A DNA stretch of 17,075 nt, from UHGV virus genome UHGV-2091278, one strand, 5' to 3'. Shown in pieces: positions 4,700-16,745 of the stretch. This DNA comes from a virus. Position 1 is the stretch's first letter, and each line of letters opens with the position of its first letter. The notes beneath the pieces were generated by a model. It had not been told where the DNA came from, ran no database searches, and saw only the letters and a program-made list of their open reading frames with translations. The position numbers and the translations under genes were made by a program.

Positions 4700-6847
4700 A
4701 TGAGTACCACAACACGAAAATTTAAAACCATTATCACTGATACTGGTGCCAAAAAATTAGCTCAGGCTGCCGCGCCAGATGGTAATCCTGTCCGCCTGAC
4801 TCATATGGCCGTGGGCGACGGTGGCGGCACGTTGCCCACACCAGACAGTAAGCAGATCCGTCTGGTGCATGAGGTGTGGCGACATACTGTTAATCGCGTC
4901 ATCCTGGACGCAACACATCAGAACCGCATTATTGCGGAGCTGGTTATTCCTCCTGAAACGGGCGGATTCTGGATCCGGGAAATTGGTGTATTTGATGAGC
5001 ACGGCGATTTGATCGCGGTGGGCAATACTGCCGAAAGTTACAAACCAACCGTTGCCGAAGGATCCGGACGTGCACAAACATTTCGCACCATTCTGACCGT
5101 ATCCAGCACTGCCACCGTGGCGCTTACCGTGGATAACACCATGGTAATGGCCACAGTGGATTACGTGAATGACAAACTGAAAGAACATGAACAGTCACGA
5201 CGTCACCCGGACGCCTCGCTGACCGCAAAAGGCTTTGTTCAACTCAGTAGCGACACTAACAGCGTGTCTGAAACGCAGGCTGCAACGCCGAAAGCAGTAA
5301 AGGCCGCGTATGATCTTGCTAACGGGAAATATACTGCGCAGGATGCCACCACAGCGCGAAAAGGCCTTGTCCAGCTCAGTAGCGCCACCAACAGCGATTC
5401 TGAAACGCTGGCGGCAACACCAATGGCGGTAAAGGCAGCATATGACCTTGCTAACGGGAAATATACTGCGCAGGATGCCACCACAGCGCGGAAAGGCCTT
5501 GTCCAGCTCAGTAGCGCCACCAACAGCACGTCTGAAGCACTGGCCGCAACACCGAAAGCGGTAAAGACAGCATATGACCTTGCTAACGGGAAATATACCG
5601 CTCAGGACGCTACGACAGCACAAAAAGGGATTGTCCAGCTAAGCAGCGCGACTAACAGCACATCTGAAACGCTTGCCGCGACACCGAAAGCAGTGAAAGC
5701 AGCTAATGACAATGCGAATGGTCGGGTACCTTCTGCCCGTAAGGTGAATGGTAAGGCGCTTTCAGCGGATATTACACTGACGCCGAAAGATATTGGTACG
5801 CTTAACTCAACAACTATGTCATTTAGCGGTGGTGCTGGTTGGTTCAAATTAGCAACGGTAACCATGCCGCAGGCGAGTTCTGTTGTTTCAATTACGTTGA
5901 TTGGTGGGGCTGGATATAACGTCGGTTCACCTCAACAGGCAGGTATATCTGAACTTGTTTTGCGTGCAGGTAATGGTAATCCGAAGGGGATTACTGGTGC
6001 TTTATGGCAGCGCACATCGACAGGGTTTACAAATTTTGCCTGGGTCAATACATCTGGTGATACTTACGATATTTACGTTGCAATCGGAAATTATGCGACT
6101 GGTGTAAATATTCAATGGGATTATACCAGTAATGCCAGCGTAACGATTCATACGTCACCAGCATATTCTGCTAATAAGCCGGAAGGGTTAACGGACGGTA
6201 CAGTTTATTCACTCTATACGCCATCAGAGCAGTTTTATCCGCCTGGCGCACCAATCCCGTGGCCATCGGATACCGTTCCGTCTGGTTATGCCCTGATGCA
6301 GGGGCAGACTTTTGACAAATCTGCCTACCCGAAACTTGCAGTCGCTTATCCGTCAGGCGTGATCCCTGATATGCGTGGCTGGACGATTAAGGGCAAGCCC
6401 GCCAGTGGTCGTGCCGTATTGTCTCAGGAACAGGACGGCATTAAATCGCACACCCACAGCGCCAGTGCATCCAGTACGGATTTGGGGACGAAAACCACAT
6501 CGTCGTTTGATTACGGTACTAAAACGACCAGTTCATTTGATTACGGCACAAAAACCACAAATAGCGCAGGAGCTCATTCACACAATATACCTGTTGGTCA
6601 CACTGGCGCGGGGAATGGTGTATCAGCCGGTTATAACGCTGCGTTAGGTACTGGTACCACGTCGAGCGCAGGAGGGCATGCTCACAATGTATATATCGGT
6701 GCCCATAACCACACTATCGGCATTGGTGCTCATGCCCATTCTGTCATTATTGGTCCCCACGGACACACCATCACCGTTAATGCTACGGGGAACGCAGAAA
6801 ACACCGTAAAAAACATCGCATTTAACTATATTGTGAGGCTTGCATAA
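4700..6847 (+). CDS. H: P2 gpH-like tail fibre protein, conserved N-terminal attachment domain, variable repeat-rich shaft and His-rich C-terminal tip
   Basis: 715 aa; N-terminus [23 protein letters not shown]... is typical of P2/Mu/P1-type fibres; internal 44-aa repeats; C-terminal HxH motifs and ...[11 protein letters not shown] terminus. Confidence 0.85.
5225..5720. repeat. Four tandem near-identical 132-bp (44-codon) repeats inside the tail fibre gene
   Basis: Repeat unit KG(F/L/I)[35 protein letters not shown](R/Q); the GGC/GGG phase points 5231, 5363, 5495 and 5627 are exactly 132 nt apart. Confidence 0.85.
6485..6565. repeat. Short 30-bp tandem repeat ([10 protein letters not shown] x ~3) in the fibre distal region
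   Basis: [10 protein letters not shown] repeated consecutively in the translation; nucleotide period 30. Confidence 0.6.
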
Positions 6848-7425
6848 TGACATTCAGAATGAGTGAACAATCACGGACCATAAAAATTTATAATCTACTG
6901 ACCGGAACCAATGAGTTTATTGGTGAAGGTGATGCATACATTCCACCTCATACAGGTCTGCCTGCAAACAGTACCGATATTGCACCACCAGATATTCCGG
7001 CTGGCTTCGTGGCTGTTTTCAACAGTGATGAGGCATCGTGGCATCTCGTTGAAGACCATCGGGGTAAAACTGTTTATGACGTGGCATCAGGGGACGCGTT
7101 ATTTATTTCTGAACTCGGTCCGTTACCGGAAAATGTTACCTGGTTGTCGCCGGATGGAGAGTGTCAGAAGTGGAACGGCACATCCTGGGTGAAAGATGCA
7201 GAAGCAGAAAAACTGTTTCGGGTAAGGGAGGCAGAAGAAACAAAAAACAGCCTGATGCAGGTAGCCAGTGAGCATATTGCGCCACTTCAGGATGCCGTAG
7301 ATTTGGATATTGCGACGGAGGAAGAGGCATCGTTACTGGCTGCATGGAAGACATATCGGGTATTGTTGAATCGTGTTGATACAACAGTAGCAGCGGATGT
7401 TGAGTGGCCAGTCGCCCCACAATAA
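6847..7425 (+). CDS. G: Tail fibre assembly chaperone (P2 gpG / Tfa-like)
   Basis: 192 aa; ATG overlaps H stop (TAATG); protein resembles Tfa/gpG chaperones; sits directly after the fibre gene. Confidence 0.8.
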
Positions 7426-7468: not shown

Positions 7469-8074
7469 CTATTTATACAATACAACACCACTCTTTTTAG
7501 TTATATATGTGCAGTTTGATGGTATATCTTTATTTATAAAAGACATTGCACCTATTTTTACATTATCCCCAATTTTACGTGATAATCCAATGATGCAACA
7601 ATTAGCTCCGATATCAACGTTACTACCAATTTTCACTCTTGAACCAGGCATGTCACCATCTATCTGCCCAATGGTAGTATTCTGTCGTAATACCAGATTT
7701 TCACCCGCATCAACAGCAAAATGAACAACAATTCCAGCATGATGGGGAATTGTTAACCCTTTTCCAATATTTGCTCCTAATCCTATTTCACAACCAAATT
7801 TGTTAATTATTTTACTGTTTAACTTTTTGGCTGCTTTCTTATGTAATTTATTACCATTAATATACATTTCGTTAGCCAACCGCCACCAGAAAAGGAAATT
7901 CCGGTTACGCTGCTTTTTCTCTCTTAAAAGCCTCCAGATATCCATACGTTTCCGCCGAATTACTTCATGTTTCCAGAAGTTTTTTAAATTAGTAGAGTTC
8001 CCAAATAAAACAAAGTGAATTGCCATTAAGTAGGACAGCACGAAAATCTCCTTAATTATTATTTCAGACCACAC
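7469..8074 (-). CDS. Hexapeptide-repeat (left-handed beta-helix) acyltransferase, serine O-acetyltransferase (CysE/WcaB-like) family; A+T-rich cargo (moron) gene
   Basis: 201 aa; C-terminal ...IGLGANIGKGLTIPHHAGIVV...IGQIDGDMPGSRVKIGSNVDIGANCCIIG...IGDNVKIGAMSFI... is the classic [LIV]G hexapeptide pattern and the DG..G.R.P.IG motif of serine acetyltransferases. Visibly lower GC than flanks. Start uncertain (GTG 8074, ATG 8026 or ATG 7945). Confidence 0.65.
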   Translation of the reverse strand: MWSEIIIKEIFVLSYLMAIHFVLFGNSTNLKNFWKHEVIRRKRMDIWRLLREKKQRNRNFLFWWRLANEMYINGNKLHKKAAKKLNSKIINKFGCEIGLGANIGKGLTIPHHAGIVVHFAVDAGENLVLRQNTTIGQIDGDMPGSRVKIGSNVDIGANCCIIGLSRKIGDNVKIGAMSFINKDIPSNCTYITKKSGVVLYK

Positions 8075-8197: not shown

Positions 8198-8692
8198 TCA
8201 GAGCAGCCCCTTAACTGAGCTGGCCGCGCTGTTAAGGGATGATGTCACCTTATCTTTGAAGCCGGACAACATATCGCTGAACGATGAGGATTGCAGGCGC
8301 TCCCGCAAATCCTCATCACAGCGTTCAAGAGTCAGTGAAAATTCTATCTTTTTCGCCTTACCGTAGCGATCAAACTCGGAGCGGGTCGTATTCGTTTCAG
8401 TCAGTACATACATGCCGTAAATCTGCCCGACGCCATCAATCAGAGGCCAGGGGCATCCTGTATATGCCTGCGTGGTCAACAACGACAGCGACACTTCGCC
8501 ACCTGTAATCTCAGGATAAAGAACACCCGAAAGAACGATGCGATCATCACCTGCACCGATATACTGCCAGCTTGCCGAACGGTTAACGCGTTCATTTTTC
8601 ACATGTCGCCAGCTTTTGTTTTGCTGTAACTGCTGATGCGGCAACGTGCGCAACTCAAAAACAAACATGCCGTAGATCATCATCATGGCCAT
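8198..8692 (-). CDS. U: P2 gpU-like tail protein
   Basis: 164 aa; ...LSGVLYPEITGGEVSLSLL...WPLIDG.G.IYGMYV... parallels P2 gpU; SD GAGGAG overlaps the T stop. Confidence 0.85.
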   Translation of the reverse strand: MAMMMIYGMFVFELRTLPHQQLQQNKSWRHVKNERVNRSASWQYIGAGDDRIVLSGVLYPEITGGEVSLSLLTTQAYTGCPWPLIDGVGQIYGMYVLTETNTTRSEFDRYGKAKKIEFSLTLERCDEDLRERLQSSSFSDMLSGFKDKVTSSLNSAASSVKGLL

Positions 8693-8698
8693 GACTCC

Positions 8699-11515
8699 TC
8701 AATCTTTATCGTAAAAACTGCCACGTCCGGCACGGTCGCGTCGTTCCAATTCTGCCCTGACCATTTCACCGACCAGTTTCGCCAGTTCGCGGGGATTCTG
8801 CGTAACAACGTTATGCAGATGAACATGAATTTCACCGCCAAATCCGGAGGCAACAGGCTCCCGGTTACGGGAAGTTACAGGAACTGATGCCACTGGAGAT
8901 CGTATGGCCTCCGCCACCGGGCGGGAGCTGGCCGCAACAACAGGGACCAGCGCCGGAGGCAGCGGAGCCGGGACCACGGGTGTGATATTAATTGCGGGGG
9001 CAGGCTTACTGACCTGCGCAATCTTCCGCTCCTGCCACTCCCCACGAACAGCAAGTGCGCGGGGCAGGTTTTTAAAGACAATATCGCCGGGGCCAATGCG
9101 TTTTTTCGTCTCCTCAACCAGCTTACCTGTGTTATCAGCAATTTTGCTGAGTCTGCGCAGCGTACCGGTATTGCTGTCTGTGAGCGGTTTATTGTCTTTG
9201 GAGTTATCACCTCCGGTGCCATTGCCATTTTCCACAGGCTTCGGCGGATTGATTTTCGCCAGGTCCCCCTGAAGTAAGGCAACCTTGTCCTGAAGAATGG
9301 CCGCACGCTGTGCGTCTTCGATTTTCTTGCGCGCCCTTTCCGCTTCATCCGGAAGGACGCCAAGTTTTTCAAGTATCCACGCCAGCGTATCCAGTAGCAT
9401 TTTTGCAGGTGTCAGAACAAGTTGTAACGCACCGCCAAGAACGTTACCGAATATCTCGCCAGCACTGGTACATTTATCCAGCGTTTCCTTGCTGGACTCC
9501 ATCGGTGACAACAGCGATTTAAACCAGTTAAACACCTGGCTGATCCCGCTTCCGATTGCGTCAAAAACAGGACCAAACCGTTCAAAGGTTTCGCGCAACG
9601 GGGTCAGCCTTTCCATAATCCCGCTGAACACCCCGGCAAAAAATGCCCTGATGGGATCCCAGTATTTCCAGATGAGAACGGCAGCTCCGGCAAGCGCAGC
9701 CACGATAAGACCGACCGGACTGAACAACGCCCCGATAGCGCCCCCCAGTAACGAAACGGAACCCGTCACCATTCCCCATAGTGCTGGCAGGAGTCTGACA
9801 GCATTCATTGAACCGGTCAGGAGGGAAAAGCCAAGACGCAGTTTTGCCAGCGGGCCAGCAAGCACACCAATAGCCAGCGACAACGAGCCAACCGTTGCAG
9901 TCATTGCCAGCAACGCACCGCCTGCTATCAGTAGCTGGCGCGTCAGTACCGGATGAGCCTGCGCCAGCGAGGTGATTTTTTCAAGCACCCGCGTGAGCCA
10001 CTGCGTGACAGAACGCAGCGGACCGTCAACCAGATCACTGATGCGAATACGAAGACCTTCCCATGCGCTGTCGAGATTTTTCAGGTCCCCATCAAGATTA
10101 TCGGCCATTACTTTTGCAACGCGATCGGCCTCTCCCCTTGCCCCCTGCAATTCTCTGGTCAGTTTTTGCAGCTCTCCTGAACCAGCCGCCGCAACAAGCG
10201 TCTGCAAACCAACGAACGCCTCTTCTCCGGCGATGTCCTTGAAGAAGGAGACCTGGTCCACCTGTCCGTATTTTTGTGTCGCCTTATAGAGATCAAGCAG
10301 CACATCCTCCATCGGGCGCATTTTGCCTCTGGCGTCAGCAACTGACACCCCCAGCTCTTTCAGCGCATCAGCCGCAGCTTTTGGCGGTGATGCAAGGCGG
10401 GACAGACTTGCGCGCATGGCCGTACCAGCATCGCTTCCACGAAGACCATTATTGGCAAGCATCCCGGCCATGGCTGCCGCTTCTTCAAGACTGATACCAA
10501 GTTTTGCGGCAACCGGACCGGTATACTTCATGGTTTCGCCCAGCGCGCGTAAATCAGTATTGGTCCGGGTGAATGCCGCTGTCAGCGTATCGCCAACCCG
10601 GTCCATTTGATCGGCTGTCAGGTTGAACTGTGTGAGGATATTGGAGCCTATATCCGCCGTCTCGCCGAGTTCGACGCCACCTGCCAGCGCCATATTAAGA
10701 ACACCGGGCAATGCGGCCTGAATGGCCTGCGGAGTAAAACCAGCCATTGCCAGAAAGCTCTGCCCACTGGCGGCATCACTCGCAGTAAACTGTGTTTCAG
10801 AACCAAGTTTTAACGCCTGCTCACGCAGCGCCTTAAACTGCGGGCTGTTTTTGTCGATTCGCGTCAGTGCCTGAACGCGGGACATCTCTTTGCCGAACCC
10901 GATCGCAGGCTGCAAAAAACGTCCGGCAGCATAGCCGCCAGCCGCTGCAGCACCAATTGCCAGCGCACCACCTGTTTTCAGTTTTCCCACGGTTTCCTGC
11001 GCGCGCGAATACCGCTCACGCGCCCGCGTTACACGCGCAAGCGCCTGCCGTTCGCGTTCAAGTTGGTTGTTGTACTGTTCGGTGCGTCTGATGGCCTGCT
11101 GGATGGTGTTATCGCTGCCTGTCAGGGAAATGCCGTGGCGTTTCAGCTCTCCGCCAAGTTCCCGCATTTTCTGAATTTCCCGTGTGCGCGATTCATTCAG
11201 GCGTTCAAGCCGGGTGCTTAACTGCTGCATCAGCTTTTGTTGTTTTTCGCTGAGAACTGTACCCGTGCGTTGTAACTGATTAAGTGCGTTAAGCTGGCGT
11301 CGTGCTTTCACGATGCCAGCATCCGCTTTACTGACAGCGTCGCGGGCGCGCTCAAATGAACGCGCCTGACGCTCGAGATTTTTGATCGCCCCCTGCGTTC
11401 GCTGAATGGAGTCACCAAACTGCCCCATCAGGCGGCGGGCGTTTTCGGCAGGCCGGGTCAGCCTGTCAACGGCGCTGAAAGCGACCCGGATGTCAAGAGT
11501 CTTCATTATCTGCAT
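8699..11515 (-). CDS. T: Tail tape measure protein (P2 gpT-like)
   Basis: Very long ORF (up to 947 aa from GTG 11542); coiled-coil-rich N-terminal region, Gly/Ala-rich hydrophobic middle segments, position between E/E' and U. Start most likely ATG 11515 or 11506, overlapping the E' stop. Confidence 0.85.
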   Translation of the reverse strand: MQIMKTLDIRVAFSAVDRLTRPAENARRLMGQFGDSIQRTQGAIKNLERQARSFERARDAVSKADAGIVKARRQLNALNQLQRTGTVLSEKQQKLMQQLSTRLERLNESRTREIQKMRELGGELKRHGISLTGSDNTIQQAIRRTEQYNNQLERERQALARVTRARERYSRAQETVGKLKTGGALAIGAAAAGGYAAGRFLQPAIGFGKEMSRVQALTRIDKNSPQFKALREQALKLGSETQFTASDAASGQSFLAMAGFTPQAIQAALPGVLNMALAGGVELGETADIGSNILTQFNLTADQMDRVGDTLTAAFTRTNTDLRALGETMKYTGPVAAKLGISLEEAAAMAGMLANNGLRGSDAGTAMRASLSRLASPPKAAADALKELGVSVADARGKMRPMEDVLLDLYKATQKYGQVDQVSFFKDIAGEEAFVGLQTLVAAAGSGELQKLTRELQGARGEADRVAKVMADNLDGDLKNLDSAWEGLRIRISDLVDGPLRSVTQWLTRVLEKITSLAQAHPVLTRQLLIAGGALLAMTATVGSLSLAIGVLAGPLAKLRLGFSLLTGSMNAVRLLPALWGMVTGSVSLLGGAIGALFSPVGLIVAALAGAAVLIWKYWDPIRAFFAGVFSGIMERLTPLRETFERFGPVFDAIGSGISQVFNWFKSLLSPMESSKETLDKCTSAGEIFGNVLGGALQLVLTPAKMLLDTLAWILEKLGVLPDEAERARKKIEDAQRAAILQDKVALLQGDLAKINPPKPVENGNGTGGDNSKDNKPLTDSNTGTLRRLSKIADNTGKLVEETKKRIGPGDIVFKNLPRALAVRGEWQERKIAQVSKPAPAINITPVVPAPLPPALVPVVAASSRPVAEAIRSPVASVPVTSRNREPVASGFGGEIHVHLHNVVTQNPRELAKLVGEMVRAELERRDRAGRGSFYDKD

Positions 11516-11761
11516 TCCCGCTGCGAAGTGCCGCCCGCTCACGCCAGCTAACCACTTCGCCGGGCGTCATCATGAAGATTTCGGCGGGCGACCAGTTAAA
11601 AATGGCGGCAATATCCGCCACCAGATCTTCGATGTGCTCAAAGCACACCAGGGTGATTACGCTGCCGTCTCCTGCACGCTCTTCGCGCCAGAGTCTGGCT
11701 CGCTCATAAAATTTACAGCCACAGCGCACAACTGAATAAAATCGCGTGACGACATTTTTTT
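11493..11761 (-). CDS. E': E' segment: -1 frame extension producing the E+E' fusion tail assembly chaperone
   Basis: The -1 frame opens exactly at the A7 run (plus-strand T7, 11755-11761) inside E and stays open to TGA at 11493-11495; the arrangement mirrors P2 E/E+E' and lambda G/GT. Confidence 0.7.
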
Positions 11762-12031
11762 AATCATCACTTCATCCAGTCGTGGCGAGGTCACGCGAGG
11801 CAACAGCGTGAACATGGTATCCGCTTTCAGATTCAGCACATCAGACAGCGACAGACCACGCAGGGATCCCGCCTGCTCAATAGCCCCGGTGATCTCCACA
11901 TATGTGATTTTTTCGGCACCACGCTCAATTGGCCGGGAAAGTTTTACACCACGTTCGACAGCCATATCCTCACCTGCCGTCACATCATCCGCTACGGTGT
12001 TATTCCGGGTTTCAGTATCGATATCTTTCAT
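11657..12031 (-). CDS. E: P2 gpE-like tail assembly chaperone (zero-frame product)
   Basis: 124 aa; located between tube and tape measure genes; SD AGGAG 7 nt upstream of ATG; contains the frameshift site. Confidence 0.8.
   Translation of the reverse strand: MKDIDTETRNNTVADDVTAGEDMAVERGVKLSRPIERGAEKITYVEITGAIEQAGSLRGLSLSDVLNLKADTMFTLLPRVTSPRLDEVMIKKMSSRDFIQLCAVAVNFMSEPDSGAKSVQETAA
11755..11761 (-). other. Putative programmed -1 ribosomal frameshift slippery site (A AAA AAA on the coding strand)
   Basis: A7 homopolymer at E codons ~90-92 (..VMIKKM..); the -1 frame has stop codons immediately upstream and opens at this run. Confidence 0.55.
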
Positions 12032-12086
12032 CAGTTGTCTCCTTTTCAGTCAGAGGCGACGCACTGCGCCGCCTGCATATTACTTA

Positions 12087-12599
12087 TCAGCCAAGCCCAA
12101 GCGCGGAACGAATGCGGTCAGGCACAATGTCCTTGCCGTCCTTCCGGTAGATGTGGTTCAACAGGTCGATTTCCCACAGCGGGCGATCGTTAACGCTAAG
12201 CTTGTAGTAGGTGTTTTTGACAGCGTAAGTGTGTGATGTGGCTTCGCCCTGTTTGGCCTCCCCCATATCAATTTCCGTCACACGCCCGCGCATCTCGATT
12301 TCATACAGATCGCTTTCTGCATCGGTGTAATATTCACCCGCAAAACGCAGCAGCGTGCCGTCAATCGTGCCGCCATACTTAAGGAACAGTGCACGAACAG
12401 CTCCCCCCATGACAAAGCTCGCATCAAGCGCGGAGTCGTCCAGACCGAGATCAATACTTACTGCCCCCATCATGCCACCACCACGATAGCTGTCGGTTTT
12501 GCGCGTCAGTTTGGGCGGCGTGACGGATGTCACTTTACCCACTTCGTTTTCACCATCCACAAACAGCGTAAAAAAGCGAAGATGTTTTGGTACAGCCAT
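12087..12599 (-). CDS. FII: P2 gpFII-like tail tube protein
   Basis: 170 aa; ...TPPKLTRKTDSYRGGGM.G...DLGLDD... matches P2 FII (LPKLTRKLENYRGAGM...DLGLDD); start ATG overlaps the FI stop (TGATG). Confidence 0.9.
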   Translation of the reverse strand: MAVPKHLRFFTLFVDGENEVGKVTSVTPPKLTRKTDSYRGGGMMGAVSIDLGLDDSALDASFVMGGAVRALFLKYGGTIDGTLLRFAGEYYTDAESDLYEIEMRGRVTEIDMGEAKQGEATSHTYAVKNTYYKLSVNDRPLWEIDLLNHIYRKDGKDIVPDRIRSALGLG

Positions 12600-13783
12600 C
12601 AGGCACCTCCCAGCACCGCAAATGCGGGACCAAAGAATTCATCAGTAAACGTCTGGTAAAGCTCCATGTCTTCCAGCGGGGGAACGGGCGTATATTTGTA
12701 GCGAATACGCACACGCCCCTGACGTAAATCCGTGGTGCCGTTATCCACCACGTCATACCAGCACTCCGCGCCAATCAGTTTCCCGGCAGTAACCAGCGAA
12801 TCCAGTTTTGCCCTGATGGCGCTGATAACATCCTTCACGTTCGCAGGCGTCAGTGGACTGTCGATGGTTTCAAACTGCGCTTCCGCAATTGAATCAGCCA
12901 GCACCTGTGCGGTTCGGGTATACACCTCAAAGATGTAGGCGTTCGTTTCCGGTGTGCGGTTGCCCCAGAAGCGGAACCCGTTGCGACGAATAATGGTCGT
13001 GATTTCTTTGTTGTTGAGGCTGTTGGCATCACTGTCTTCGGCCTGTAATGACCAGAACACATGCCTCGACATCCCCAGCACATTTTTAACCGGAACGTTG
13101 GACAGTGATTTGTGCCACCCCTGCTCATGGTCAATGTACGCACGAAGGCCGCACGCATAGGCAGGCGCGGGGAACGTTTCGTTTTTGCCACTTTTCGGGT
13201 TGTAGGCGATGAAGTCCGGCCATAAGAGCATCACCTCACGTTCGTTGAATTTCTGGCGGTAGGTAATCGCCTCAGCCATCGTGTTACAGCCGTGACATGA
13301 GGCATACACAAACGCGCGCAGTTTACCTGCAATCACGCACAGGGATTTTGTTACAGCCTCCGTGTCCAGCTCCGGCGCAGCCAGAATACGCGGACGGTAT
13401 CCGATGCTTTCATCCTGCTCTGCAACAAGCAGCGCATACATCCCCGTATAGCTGCCGTCATCCTCAGAACCACCGATAACCAGTTGATCCTGCGTCTTTC
13501 CGTCTTCTTCTTTGTGTTCAGCCACGCGAACGACGATCACCTTTGTGCTCACCTGGTCTGCGATGGCCTTAAGCGCACGATAAAGCGTCCCCGTTGTTCC
13601 GCATTTTCCCAGCACGTCATTGACGCGGGTCAGCAGTGTGGGCTTGTTCAGCGGGAACAGCTTCGCGTCCGCATCATCCGCCGTTGCCACGATACCGATA
13701 ACGCTGGAATCAACATCGTTAATCGCTGTTACCAGGTCGGTATTTTCCGTAACACGGGCACCATGAAAACGAGTTTCACTCAT
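12599..13783 (-). CDS. FI: P2 gpFI-like contractile tail sheath protein
   Basis: 394 aa; ...FPLNKP...KLRAF.Y....C.T..E...YRQ.F..RE.M..WPDF...EQGWHK.LSNV...FRFWGNRT...YTRTAQV..D...YTPVPPLE... is diagnostic of the P2 sheath family. Confidence 0.9.
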   Translation of the reverse strand: MSETRFHGARVTENTDLVTAINDVDSSVIGIVATADDADAKLFPLNKPTLLTRVNDVLGKCGTTGTLYRALKAIADQVSTKVIVVRVAEHKEEDGKTQDQLVIGGSEDDGSYTGMYALLVAEQDESIGYRPRILAAPELDTEAVTKSLCVIAGKLRAFVYASCHGCNTMAEAITYRQKFNEREVMLLWPDFIAYNPKSGKNETFPAPAYACGLRAYIDHEQGWHKSLSNVPVKNVLGMSRHVFWSLQAEDSDANSLNNKEITTIIRRNGFRFWGNRTPETNAYIFEVYTRTAQVLADSIAEAQFETIDSPLTPANVKDVISAIRAKLDSLVTAGKLIGAECWYDVVDNGTTDLRQGRVRIRYKYTPVPPLEDMELYQTFTDEFFGPAFAVLGGA

Positions 13784-13940
13784 AGCTTCAGCCCCTTGTA
13801 TCCGTTAAATGATTCGGCAACAATCATCACCCACCACGCGCGTAATCTCACCCCTGCGCTATTCTCCCGCCACGGCGACAACAAAAAGCAGTACCCCCCT
13901 CCGCACGCACATGCGACCATGCCGTACAGGGAGGGAACAG
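13784..13940. promoter_or_regulatory. Divergent intergenic region expected to hold the late promoters for the FI operon (-) and D (+)
   Basis: 157-bp non-coding gap between divergently oriented start codons; no specific Ogr-box could be confidently recognised by eye. Confidence 0.3.
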
Positions 13941-15050
13941 ATGACCGACACCACCATGCAATTGCTCAGTCAGGGCACAGACCCCGTGAAAATGCCGGAT
14001 TTTGATATTCTCGCCGAGGGTAAAACGCTGTCCGGCGTGGCAGAACGCCTGATGAGCCTGTCACTGACCGACAACCGGGGATTTGAGGCGGACCAGCTCA
14101 CCATCACGCTGGATGATGCCGATGGCCAGTTGCAGCTACCGCCACGGGGCGCGCGCCTGACGGTTCTCATTGGCTGGAAAGGGGAACCGCTGACAGAAAA
14201 AGGCACTTACATTGTTGATGAAATCGCTCACGAAGGACCGCCGGACAGGCTGACTGTTTCAGCCAGAAGCGCAGATTTTCGGGATGAATTTAATGTTAAA
14301 CGTGAGGCGTCCTGGCATGATGTGACCGTTGAACGTGTGGTATCCGCCATCGCTCATCGGTACGGCCTGAAACCGCAAATCAGCGAAATGCTGATGGATA
14401 TCGAAATCGACCACGCCGACCAGACTGAAGAAAGCGACATGTCCTTCCTTACGCGCATGGCGGAAATGCTGGGCGCAATCACCACGGTAAAAAGCGGTAA
14501 TCTGTTATTCATCATGCCCGGCGGTGGCGTGAACGCACAGGGCCAGCCGTTGCCATCGTTCGCCATCACACGCAGCAGCGGCGATCGCCATCAGTTCCGC
14601 ATTGCTGACCGCGAGGCGTATACGGGGGTACGCGCTTACTGGCTTGATCTTAATTACGGGAAAAAGAAAAAAGTCAGCGTGAAACGCCGCAAACCGCCAA
14701 AACCCAAAAAGGAGAAAAGCAGCAGCCGTGAAGGTGATTATATGGAAGGCGCGGAAGGCAATGTGTTTGTGTTACGCAAGACTTATCAGAACGAGCAGGC
14801 AGCAAGACGCGCAGCGGCGGCAAAGTGGCAGCAGCTACAACGCGGAGCCGCATCATTCTCCATCACACTGGCACGCGGACGCGCAGAACTCTACCCCGAA
14901 ATGCATGGCACGGTAACAGGATTTAAAAGCGAGATTGATAATCAGGACTGGATTATTGCAAAATCCGAGCACACCATTGATAACAGCGGCTTTACCACGC
15001 AGCTTGAGCTTGAAGCAAAAATTCCGGAATGGATAGCAGAAACAGAATGA
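13941..15050 (+). CDS. D: P2 gpD-like tail protein
   Basis: Track ORF starts at 13809, but homology to P2 gpD begins at MTDTTMQLLSQGTDPV...; ATG 13941 has GGGAGGGAA SD upstream. ...DNRGF.ADQLT.TLDDADG...YIVDEIAH.G.PD.LTV.ARSADFR..., the basic KK-rich stretch and ...SGFTT.LELE... are all gpD-like. Confidence 0.85.
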   Translation: MTDTTMQLLSQGTDPVKMPDFDILAEGKTLSGVAERLMSLSLTDNRGFEADQLTITLDDADGQLQLPPRGARLTVLIGWKGEPLTEKGTYIVDEIAHEGPPDRLTVSARSADFRDEFNVKREASWHDVTVERVVSAIAHRYGLKPQISEMLMDIEIDHADQTEESDMSFLTRMAEMLGAITTVKSGNLLFIMPGGGVNAQGQPLPSFAITRSSGDRHQFRIADREAYTGVRAYWLDLNYGKKKKVSVKRRKPPKPKKEKSSSREGDYMEGAEGNVFVLRKTYQNEQAARRAAAAKWQQLQRGAASFSITLARGRAELYPEMHGTVTGFKSEIDNQDWIIAKSEHTIDNSGFTTQLELEAKIPEWIAETE

Positions 15051-15106
15051 GTAAATTAGATGCATTAGCTCAGTCATGAGTTTACTGATTACGTACGGCA
15101 CAGAAG

Positions 15107-15141
15107 CAAACCTGATAGTTTGCTCTGTGCCAGAAACGGAC
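15107..15141. terminator. Long imperfect inverted repeat between convergent D and the DUF2971-like gene
   Basis: GGCACAGAAGCAAA ... TTTGCTCTGTGCC (about 13 bp stem, one bulge, 8-nt loop); no adjacent U-tract, so function uncertain. Confidence 0.25.
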
Positions 15142-15172
15142 ATTGCCGACATCATAATCGACACAAATTACA

Positions 15173-16036
15173 TTAATCACCTATGTGATTACGTTCTATA
15201 TATCTTACAATCTTCTCTAAAGATTCAACCCCCCACCTCTGCATAGCATGCGGGGATTCTGTATATTCATAATCTTCTATGGTGAGATCCCATGTACTTT
15301 TCTTGAATTCACACTGATATAATCGCACAGTCTTGTTTAAAACCAACCCTTCTAACACACTGCTTTTCTTAATGATTTTGTCAATGTCTTTATTGTTAAT
15401 CCCAATGTAGATAGCTGTTACCGAACTTAAATCAGTTATCTTGTCAATTAAAATATTTTCTTGCTTTTGTAATAGCCCCACTCGCTTTATTATTCTAACT
15501 TCTTCTTCATATTTCCAATGCAATGATTTAGTAAGCAATAATTTACTAATTACATCAGCGCTATAAATGTTTTCTTGACTGATTTTTAGTTTGCTTTTTA
15601 TTCGACTCTCTAAATAATTAATGTCACCTTTCTGTGCCGTAATTAGGCATTTTTCTTCATCATCAAACCCTGCCCTTTCTGTGTCAATTGCTACAACAAA
15701 CCCCTGATGTTTATCAGCATAATGTGACCACATCAGTACATTGAGAGGATTTTTAGAAAGGCATAAGCAGGCAACATTTTGATTGATCTCCCCCCTCATA
15801 GCTAATGGTTCAAGCGATTCACCATCTAATGAAAGTTCATAGCCATAGCTTTCAAAAGGATCATTAAACTCACTATATGGAGTGAATTTTATAGAGATGT
15901 AACCATCTTTAAAAAATCGTTCCAATGATGTCTTATCTATATATTTATACAGAATCATAATATATTCAGAATTAATTATAGGTGTTATCAGTATACAGTA
16001 CTTCAACAAGTAGATGTAAAGATCCCATTTAAACAT
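15173..16036 (-). CDS. DUF2971-family-like protein of unknown function; A+T-rich cargo gene inserted between D and ogr
   Basis: 287 aa; ...ILYKYIDKTSLERFF.DGYI..KFTPYSEFNDPFES... and ...LMWSHYADKHQGFVVAID... resemble the conserved N-terminal motifs I associate with DUF2971. Strong SD GAGGAGGA directly before ATG 16036; visibly low GC. Confidence 0.6.
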   Translation of the reverse strand: MFKWDLYIYLLKYCILITPIINSEYIMILYKYIDKTSLERFFKDGYISIKFTPYSEFNDPFESYGYELSLDGESLEPLAMRGEINQNVACLCLSKNPLNVLMWSHYADKHQGFVVAIDTERAGFDDEEKCLITAQKGDINYLESRIKSKLKISQENIYSADVISKLLLTKSLHWKYEEEVRIIKRVGLLQKQENILIDKITDLSSVTAIYIGINNKDIDKIIKKSSVLEGLVLNKTVRLYQCEFKKSTWDLTIEDYEYTESPHAMQRWGVESLEKIVRYIERNHIGD

Positions 16037-16153
16037 TCCTCCTCAATACGCGGATTAAACAAATTAAAGCATCTTACTCAAAATGGACCATCAGTTGGAT
16101 TTAGAGCCAACACAACCTAGAATAGCGGCAGCACCACGTTAAGGGAGGTCGCT

Positions 16154-16414
16154 ATGTTCCGTTGTCCGCTTTGTGGCGCATCTGCCCGTATCCGCACCAG
16201 TCGTCCGGAAAATGATTCAAACACCGTGCGACAAAAGTATTACCAGTGCAACAACCTGGAATGCGGCGTATGCTTCTCAACACTGGAAGCTTTCCATAAA
16301 TTCACATCGAAGCACGCCTCCGGCGTTCACTCTTCAGAAGGTATCCCGTGGCATGAGCTGCCAGCTTCGCACAGGGGAAACAATCAGATGAGTTTGCCTT
16401 TACCTCAGAATTAA
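16154..16414 (+). CDS. ogr: Ogr/Delta-family zinc-finger late transcription activator
   Basis: MFRCPLCGASARIRTSR...QKYYQCNNLECGVCFSTLE... matches P2 Ogr (MFHCPLCQHAAHARTSR...ERYHQCQNVNCSATF) with a Cys-x2-Cys...Cys-x4-Cys arrangement; SD AAGGGAGG upstream. Confidence 0.8.
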   Translation: MFRCPLCGASARIRTSRPENDSNTVRQKYYQCNNLECGVCFSTLEAFHKFTSKHASGVHSSEGIPWHELPASHRGNNQMSLPLPQN

Positions 16415-16474: not shown

Positions 16475-16738
16475 ATGGTCGGAGGGAATACCCGAAGGCC
16501 AGATGTGGAAAGGCCCCGGAAAACATCTCTGTTTAACCGAGGCCCTAACCGCATTACCTTGACAAGTGAAAGGTTAGCGCCTCTCCGGAAAAGGAGCAAG
16601 TGCTATGTCGCAAAAATCGCTTACGGCCATCACGTTCTGCGTGACGGCAATCCTCATCATCTGGATGCTGCACGGTTCGCTGTGCGAAATACGGATGAGC
16701 TTCTGGGGAGCGGAGTTTGCGGCGTTCTTACAGTGTAA
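16475..16738 (+). CDS. mok-like overlapping reading frame (possible translational coupling ORF for the hok-like toxin)
   Basis: 87-codon ORF in a different frame that starts upstream of and overlaps almost all of the hok-like ORF, as mok does in hok/sok loci. Confidence 0.3.
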   Translation: MVGGNTRRPDVERPRKTSLFNRGPNRITLTSERLAPLRKRSKCYVAKIAYGHHVLRDGNPHHLDAARFAVRNTDELLGSGVCGVLTV

Positions 16739-16745
16739 GCAGTAA
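16605..16745 (+). CDS. Hok/Gef-family type I toxin (small membrane peptide)
   Basis: 46-aa ORF MSQKSLTAITFCVTAILIIWMLHGSLCEIRMSFWGAEFAAFLQCKQ, too short for the ORF track. Hydrophobic TM segment then SLCEIR...E.AAF, the Hok signature (Hok: ...RKSLCEIRYRDGHREVAAF...). SD AAGGAG 8 nt upstream. Confidence 0.7.
   Translation: MSQKSLTAITFCVTAILIIWMLHGSLCEIRMSFWGAEFAAFLQCKQ

Follow-up and report, generated by a model that had tools for sequence, protein, structure and literature searches.

A DUF2971 gene captured between tail gene D and ogr of a P88-like Escherichia coli prophage is a candidate single-gene anti-phage system

In a P88-like prophage of Escherichia coli, the tail gene D and the late activator gene ogr are separated by an insert of A+T-rich DNA that carries a single gene of the DUF2971 family. 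We propose, with a probability of about 0.6, that this gene is a stand-alone abortive-infection gene with an ADP-ribosyltransferase (ART)-like fold which was captured by the prophage as a mobile cassette. As parts of this proposal, an anti-phage function of the gene is probable, ADP-ribosyltransferase chemistry of its product is slightly favoured, and we infer both the abortive-infection outcome and the expression of the gene in the lysogen. An earlier note on the same DNA had read the gene as a horizontally acquired single-gene DUF2971 candidate for defence or abortive infection in a variable slot, and this reading is supported, as its testable parts held in the analyses described here. The family, its fold prediction and the concept of P2-family hotspots have already been published, and the finding is no surprise to specialists.

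The DNA analysed is a stretch of 17,075 nucleotides of the virus genome UHGV-2091278 (hereafter the window). In the region tested, the window was 100% identical to the chromosome of E. coli strain A1 from a short-beaked echidna (NZ_CP029328.1). Its content is the late-gene arm of a prophage whose end lies next to ihfA, and the closest phages are the Xuanwuvirus members P88, P884B11, 500465-2 and 520873. On the left of the insert lies tail gene D (13941-15050, plus strand; phrog_52, E=8e-167), a 369-aa ‘phage late control D family protein’ in the relatives, and on the right lies the gene of an ogr/Delta-like zinc-finger late activator (16154-16414, plus strand; phrog_603, E=4e-15, and RefSeq). 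For the region 13809-15050 (plus strand) of strain A1, RefSeq represents D by a protein of 266 aa and, on the opposite strand, a pseudogene fragment; the open reading frame supports the 369-aa D with its start at 13941, as annotated in other genomes.

The composition of the window shows a G+C content of 0.30-0.35 across 15200-16100 versus 0.51-0.60 in the flanks. In phage P88, E. coli U12A and most relatives, the junction is empty and the D stop is 42 bp from the ogr start. When the window was aligned by BLAST with the empty sites of E. coli U12A (L017) and phage P88 (L018), the homology ended at 15060 and resumed at 16113/16114. Because the homology is lost at 15060 and regained at 16113, the insert is about 1,052 bp (15061-16112). 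Thus, the roughly 1.1 kb of A+T-rich DNA that had been noticed between D and ogr is borne out. That DNA had been set against canonical P2, which is a loose comparison for a Xuanwuvirus (P88-like) prophage, but the contrast holds for the true relatives with their 42-bp junction. The same 1,052 bp was found with at least 97% identity in 16 of 5,426 E. coli genomes (17 copies), each time with the D and ogr flanks. The cassette-bearing E. coli are commensal and environmental strains, with echidna, crow, dog and wastewater among their sources.

A probe of 401 bp that spans an empty junction matched 1,200 E. coli genomes. The junction was contiguous in 720 of the 1,200 genomes, and in about 480 of them the two halves were separated or one half was found alone. 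Every interrupted site that was sampled held one gene, and at least eight unrelated single-gene cargos were seen. Besides DUF2971, these comprised three proteins of 221, 385 and 132 aa, the first of them also present in EPEC E2348/69, a 340-aa protein that matched HEPN_RiboL-PSP below the threshold, a DUF3800 protein of 389 aa, a YecA-family protein of 379 aa that bears a SEC-C motif and an alpha/beta hydrolase of 252 aa. Both orientations of the cargos occur. The comparison of the D-ogr interval across relatives therefore confirms a variable cargo site.

The borders of the insert are partly common to occupied sites. At the left border (15061-15073), loci with other cargo types (L002, L003, L004 and L006) align with the window up to 15069-15073, and the empty sites align up to 15060. 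The right border (16079-16112) is likewise common to other cargo types and absent from the empty sites: the alignment starts at 16079 for the loci with the 221-aa cargo (L003 and L006), at 16091 for the DUF3800 locus (L002), at 16094 for L005 and at 16113 for the empty sites. Since these border bases are common to occupied loci and missing at empty sites, they suggest that cargos are exchanged by recombination within the border sequences. A search for repeats flanking the insert as a signature of insertion returned short ones at chance level only. The D-ogr junction is plausibly part of a third P2-family hotspot. Like the known accessory hotspots of the family (old/tin and Z/fun; PMC9122126, PMC13586616 and preprint 10.1101/2024.10.15.618418), it holds swappable accessory genes between conserved phage genes; it differs from them in that this junction of P88-like phages lies outside the two classical sites, and the sampled sites contain single genes only.

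When the other cargos were searched with PADLOC, the YecA-family protein gave a weak match via its SEC-C region (E>=3e-5) and the rest gave none. Since the other cargos have no PADLOC match apart from this weak one, the slot is not proven to be specific for defence genes. The YecA-family cargo (L027, 1616-2755, in E. coli O26 RM10386) has its SEC-C motif at the N-terminus (PF02810, E=2e-8), and Rugutis, a lactococcal single-gene antiphage system, carries a PF02810 SEC-C domain (PMC11381338). Thus, two cargos of the D-ogr slot share domains with lactococcal Abi-like systems.

The sole gene of the insert had been described as a 287-aa gene on the minus strand. The open reading frame is present (15173-16036, minus strand, 287 aa), but the conserved protein has 261 aa and is encoded by 15173-15958 (minus strand, stop included), as indicated by RefSeq and the starts of orthologues. 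Its start is Met-27 of the 287-aa frame (ATG at 15958), the same as in RefSeq WP_064549311.1. The homologues are typically 260-264 aa long and all align from Met-27, and the distant orthologues all start there. In the Klebsiella and Aeromonas orthologues, GGGG or GGAG stands directly upstream of the ATG that is equivalent to Met-27. The 26 upstream in-frame codons (15959-16036, minus strand) are conserved at the DNA level only and are probably a non-coding 5’ region: compared with Buttiauxella and other orthologues, they are put out of frame by a 1-nt indel, and the upstream ATGs of those orthologues are at differing positions. The GAGGAGG before the ATG at 16036, which had been taken for the gene's own strong Shine-Dalgarno sequence, does exist in the DNA; it has a spacing of 1-4 nt, lies outside the block shared with orthologues and is not conserved in them, and it is probably fortuitous. 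The frame-shifting indel and the non-conserved Shine-Dalgarno sequence together rule out the 287-aa start with its GGAGG as the conserved start. Judged from these alignments, the product of the gene is probably 261 aa, and a longer isoform specific to E. coli may exist.

To assign the protein to a family, it was compared with profile libraries. Pfam DUF2971 (PF11185) matched over the full length of the profile (1-89 of 89) with E=5.4e-11 and 44.1 bits, above the cut-off of 22, so the membership that the earlier note had proposed from short motifs was correct. At E<=1, Pfam returned DUF2971 plus a sub-threshold AfaD match and nothing else, and thus there was no DarT-family match. Five PADLOC models of PDC-S31 matched (the best, PDLC04990, with E=4.1e-27 and 93.6 bits over residues 83-254), and at E<=1 PADLOC gave no other family. 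In PHROGs the protein belongs to phrog_1762 of unknown function (E=1e-57), and NCBIfam gave no match. Each of the 120 homologues listed carries PF11185 or is unannotated. By tblastn, DUF2971 homologues were found on 765 plasmids, and they are common in genomes of phages and phage-plasmids such as Cyrano and SSU5, of which SSU5 is a phage-plasmid. PDC-S31 is a computational single-gene defence candidate of PADLOC, and it was not named anywhere in the literature that could be searched. The gene is a good candidate for a defence gene, though not a surprising one, because its family is already on the list of anti-phage candidates, and it adds a member to an already catalogued type (DUF2971 / PDC-S31 / Aristaios-type).

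Aristaios is the validated member of this type. It is a 316-aa DUF2971 protein of the Lactococcus plasmid pUCCL641_199 that acts as a single-gene Abi-like system and has an ART-like model (Grafakou et al. 2024, PMC11381338), and it inhibits phage transcription and protein production (PMC13064643, PMC12967558). The window protein resembles Aristaios in having a DUF2971 domain and a single-gene locus on a mobile element, a likeness that is drawn through the shared Pfam family. The two differ in host phylum and in the type of mobile element, and it is for Aristaios that the Abi-like phenotype was demonstrated. The sequence identity between them is probably low, and no Lactococcus plasmid was among the tblastn matches listed. 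The likeness to PDC-S31 consists of the HMM match and the single-gene architecture.

An AlphaFold2 model of the protein had a pLDDT of 91.7, with strand 1 starting at residue 2. Foldseek searches of the model against PDB and BFVD gave nothing significant, and a profile HMM search against PDB sequences gave no match. Across 79 homologues, the residues Asn-32, Asp-33, Pro-34, Leu-75, Trp-77, His-79, Tyr-80, Gly-86, Lys-144, Trp-148, Glu-151, Glu-153, Arg-155 and Gly-186 (261-aa numbering) are invariant, and the window protein keeps all 14 of them, with Tyr-80 in the motif WSHY. DUF2971 has been predicted to be a modified H-Y-E ART near DarT and AbiGi, with a conserved Tyr, an ExE motif and a poorly conserved His (PMC12522546). 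At the level of sequence, Tyr-80 and Glu-151-x-Glu-153 fit this Tyr plus ExE assignment, and the motif-I His/Arg is not conserved, as strand 1 reads Tyr-Lys-Tyr. The signal for an ART fold in the model is consistent but weak. Where the earlier note assigned no mechanism, an ADP-ribosyltransferase-like fold can be suggested from the model. It is unlikely that the gene serves defence by some other chemistry, that is by NAD+ hydrolysis or depletion, by an action like that of RNA 2’-phosphotransferase or by binding only, since the invariant Tyr and the ExE-type motif fit ARTs that act as transferases (PMC12522546).

Two other ART systems were compared with the window locus. DarT of DarTG is paired with the macrodomain antitoxin DarG, whereas neither the insert nor the conserved unit described below contains DarG or any second gene, and the aligned sequence identity of the window protein to DarT is 5-12%. 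CmdT of CmdTAC is an mRNA ADP-ribosyltransferase (PMC11618068) and would be alike as an ART effector that blocks phage gene expression, the ART being predicted in the present case. CmdTAC is a three-gene toxin-antitoxin-chaperone system, whereas the window locus has one gene; CmdTAC was discovered in variable regions of P2-like phages (iLund4u preprint 10.1101/2024.10.15.618418).

Proteins of this family have also been linked to virulence: about 18% of DUF2971 proteins are predicted effectors, and the family was found via a Legionella effector candidate (PMC12522546). The same prophage has another cargo of the conversion type, an acetyltransferase gene at 7469-8074. These points would fit a moron with a role outside defence, for example an ADP-ribosylating virulence effector that is secreted or injected, or a lysogenic conversion gene of another kind. 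Such a role has a remote chance of being correct. Neither a signal peptide nor a hydrophobic leader is present at the N-terminus (MILYKYIDKTSLERFF...), strand 1 beginning at residue 2; secretion genes were linked in none of the contexts examined; and the gene is found in the commensal and environmental E. coli listed above.

To define the extent of the cassette, the E. coli sequence was compared with orthologues of 75-78% protein identity from five contexts. The nucleotide identity was 0.64-0.90 from about -75 to about +820 relative to the ATG, and it was at background upstream of -75 and beyond about +845-860. The conserved unit (about 15113-16033, about 0.92 kb) thus consists of about 75 nt upstream, the gene and about 60 nt downstream, which leaves no space for another gene. 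In nine contexts, the genes flanking it upstream and downstream are not homologous to one another, so there is no conserved neighbour gene. Small upstream open reading frames in Klebsiella, Buttiauxella, K. aerogenes and Citrobacter were considered as a partner gene (antitoxin or sensor) and rejected, as they are mutually non-homologous and the E. coli cassette has none. The results agree with a single-gene system, as had been suggested for this insert: there is no conserved partner, and conservation is confined to about -75 to +845 around the open reading frame.

The orthologues reside in elements of several types. An Enterobacter orthologue (77%) is in a satellite with integrase, AlpA and a DUF927 primase, and in one variant of this satellite the gene lies beside a complete Septu system (PtuA, E=5e-153; PtuB, E=7e-117). 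In that int/AlpA/DUF927 satellite, PtuA and PtuB occupy L021 7562-9617, about 1.8 kb from the DUF2971 orthologue. A Serratia orthologue is in a P4-like satellite (AlpA, Ash and P4-type primase), between the primase and host DNA, a position known as a minor P4 defence hotspot (PMC13586616). The Klebsiella orthologue (75.6%) is on an IncN/IncR conjugative plasmid, in the ard/muc region (ardK/ardB/mucA), where it adjoins two tyrosine recombinases. The Buttiauxella orthologue is chromosomal. Among the distant relatives (45-68% identity), one of Klebsiella is in an island near umuDC-like genes and a PtuA/AriA-like ATPase, one of Aeromonas follows zot in a filamentous prophage, one is in a phage-plasmid-like element with DnaB, ParA and a tailspike, one of Citrobacter is at the end of a P2/HP1-like prophage, and one of K. 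aerogenes is at the edge of a cluster of unannotated genes. The orthologues are thus associated with defence loci in the satellite defence hotspots, one of them beside Septu.

The same contexts bear on whether the gene protects the host cell. An ART-like protein could instead serve the mobile element in counter-defence or host takeover, by modifying host defence or host machinery. The T4 enzymes Alt, ModA and ModB modify host proteins, and plasmid leading regions carry anti-defence genes. The position of the Klebsiella plasmid copy next to antirestriction genes and the abundance of DUF2971 homologues in phage and phage-plasmid genomes (SSU5 and Cyrano) would agree with such a role. However, the Klebsiella plasmid gene abuts the two tyrosine recombinases, which suggests that it arrived as cargo of an inserted element; other orthologues sit in the satellite defence hotspots; the window gene is co-oriented with no phage operon; and the family is a PADLOC defence-island candidate, with Aristaios protecting cells (PMC11381338). 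Counter-defence is therefore distinctly unlikely.

Three points might suggest a selfish addiction or toxin module, or a decaying passenger of no current function: the predicted fold is toxin-like and no antitoxin is visible, the prophage arm also contains a hok/gef killer gene at a distance of 450 bp, and the cassette is rare (the 16 genomes above). Post-segregational killing needs a labile antidote, for which the 0.92-kb unit has no room. The open reading frame is intact in all 17 copies at 97% identity or more, all family-invariant residues are kept, and orthologues at 45-78% identity have kept their full length in many elements, a sign of purifying selection. An addiction module or a decaying passenger is thus very improbable, and a defence gene of the abortive-infection type remains the preferred reading.

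The DNA upstream of the gene was searched for a promoter. A block of about 75 nt (15959-16033, minus strand; 64-88% identity in five genetic contexts) travels with the gene and presumably contains its promoter or 5’ UTR. Inside this block there is a -10-like TATAAT at 15975-15980, for which no good -35 element was found. A sigma-70 scan gave 8 consensus-like sites versus 4.6 expected, none of them well placed, and from the best minus-strand site near the start, transcription would begin within the open reading frame. Since no convincing promoter was found, expression of the gene in the lysogen is an assumption. The divergent promoter region that had been proposed to be shared with ogr is putative. 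By RNAalifold, the upstream block had -7.4 kcal/mol with no covariation and no conserved fold, and an Rfam search of 14900-16300 at E<=1 found nothing. Inspection of the block by eye for LexA-box or Ogr-type (TGT-N12-ACA) sites gave no convincing match.

Downstream of the gene, a 16-bp stem-loop with no U-tract (15096-15132, minus strand) was predicted by RNA folding between the convergent stops of D and the DUF2971 gene. The fold of 15051-15172 (minus strand) had -39 kcal/mol with z=-3.9, and the homology to orthologues stops within the 5’ arm of the stem-loop, at about +845 from the ATG.

With the insert in place, ogr is no longer next to the 3’ end of D, and any transcript that reaches ogr must either run through the cargo in antisense or begin close to the right border. 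Because the gene lies antisense to this direction, read-through of late transcription into ogr could keep the gene silent while the prophage itself grows lytically. By eye, a TTGGAT-N17-TAGAAT is present at 16079-16124 (plus strand), across the right border of the insert and directly upstream of the ogr Shine-Dalgarno sequence; it was not picked up by the promoter scan. The TAGAAT upstream of ogr is also present at empty sites, and the -35-like TTGGAT comes from the border sequence of occupied sites. Going by these motifs, the arrangement could be a way for ogr to keep a promoter when the slot is filled.

We propose the following model for the gene. A cassette made of about 75 nt upstream, one gene and a short 3’ tail would have been captured in the D-ogr slot of a Xuanwuvirus prophage of E. 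coli, and its product would be a 261-aa cytoplasmic DUF2971 protein with a divergent, DarT/Tpt1-like ADP-ribosyltransferase fold. This effector would most likely protect the lysogen against other phages as a stand-alone system of the abortive-infection type. Upon sensing infection, it would transfer ADP-ribose from NAD+ to nucleic acid or to part of the transcription or translation machinery, and the modification would shut down phage gene expression, as reported for Aristaios. A toxic ART that has no antitoxin would need a control mechanism, and the sequence reveals none. Because there is no partner gene, the control would have to be intrinsic, for example through low expression or auto-inhibition by the C-terminal ~100 residues. 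A more far-reaching version of the model is doubtful, although we put it forward tentatively: the gene would be the first stand-alone, antitoxin-free ART-type immunity gene borne by a Gram-negative prophage, with a DarT/Tpt1-like enzyme that is released from auto-inhibition by a phage trigger and modifies nucleic acid or the transcription machinery, and with a 0.9-kb promoter-plus-gene cassette that has spread among P2-like prophages, P4-like and PICI-like satellites, inoviruses, phage-plasmids and conjugative plasmids.

If the gene is active, single-gene defence of the DUF2971/Aristaios type would no longer be confined to lactococcal plasmids but would include enterobacterial prophages, and PDC-S31, a PADLOC candidate, would become a validated system in a tractable host. 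It would also provide a minimal model for how an ADP-ribosyltransferase with no antitoxin is kept silent until infection. Since the D-ogr junction is interrupted in about 40% of the E. coli genomes that carry it, mostly by unannotated single genes, it is a compact place to seek one-gene defence systems.

Several other features of the prophage were observed. The minus-strand gene at 7469-8074, between the tail-fibre assembly gene G and the tail gene U, encodes a hexapeptide-repeat acetyltransferase, with EpsC, CysE and WcaB matches far below the NCBIfam cut-offs and the RefSeq name ‘serine acetyltransferase’. In phage P88, a DNA invertase gene and an alternative fibre segment occupy the corresponding place. 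The locus is a second cargo slot of the same prophage, and its product is possibly involved in the modification of surface polysaccharide. A full-length match to Rfam IS009 (RF02111) at 7190-7388 (plus strand; 193 bits, gathering score 117) lies within the 3’ part of the tail-fibre assembly gene (6847-7425). The genes FI-FII-E-T-U are on the minus strand (8198-13783) and diverge from D, unlike the colinear order of P2. This inverted FI-U block was considered as an anomaly and ruled out, since phage P88 has the identical layout, which is thus normal for Xuanwuvirus. The Hok/Gef-family killer gene (16605-16745, plus strand; Pfam HOK_GEF, E=4e-7) is located between ogr and the end of the prophage at ihfA, and it is conserved in all the P88-like relatives examined.
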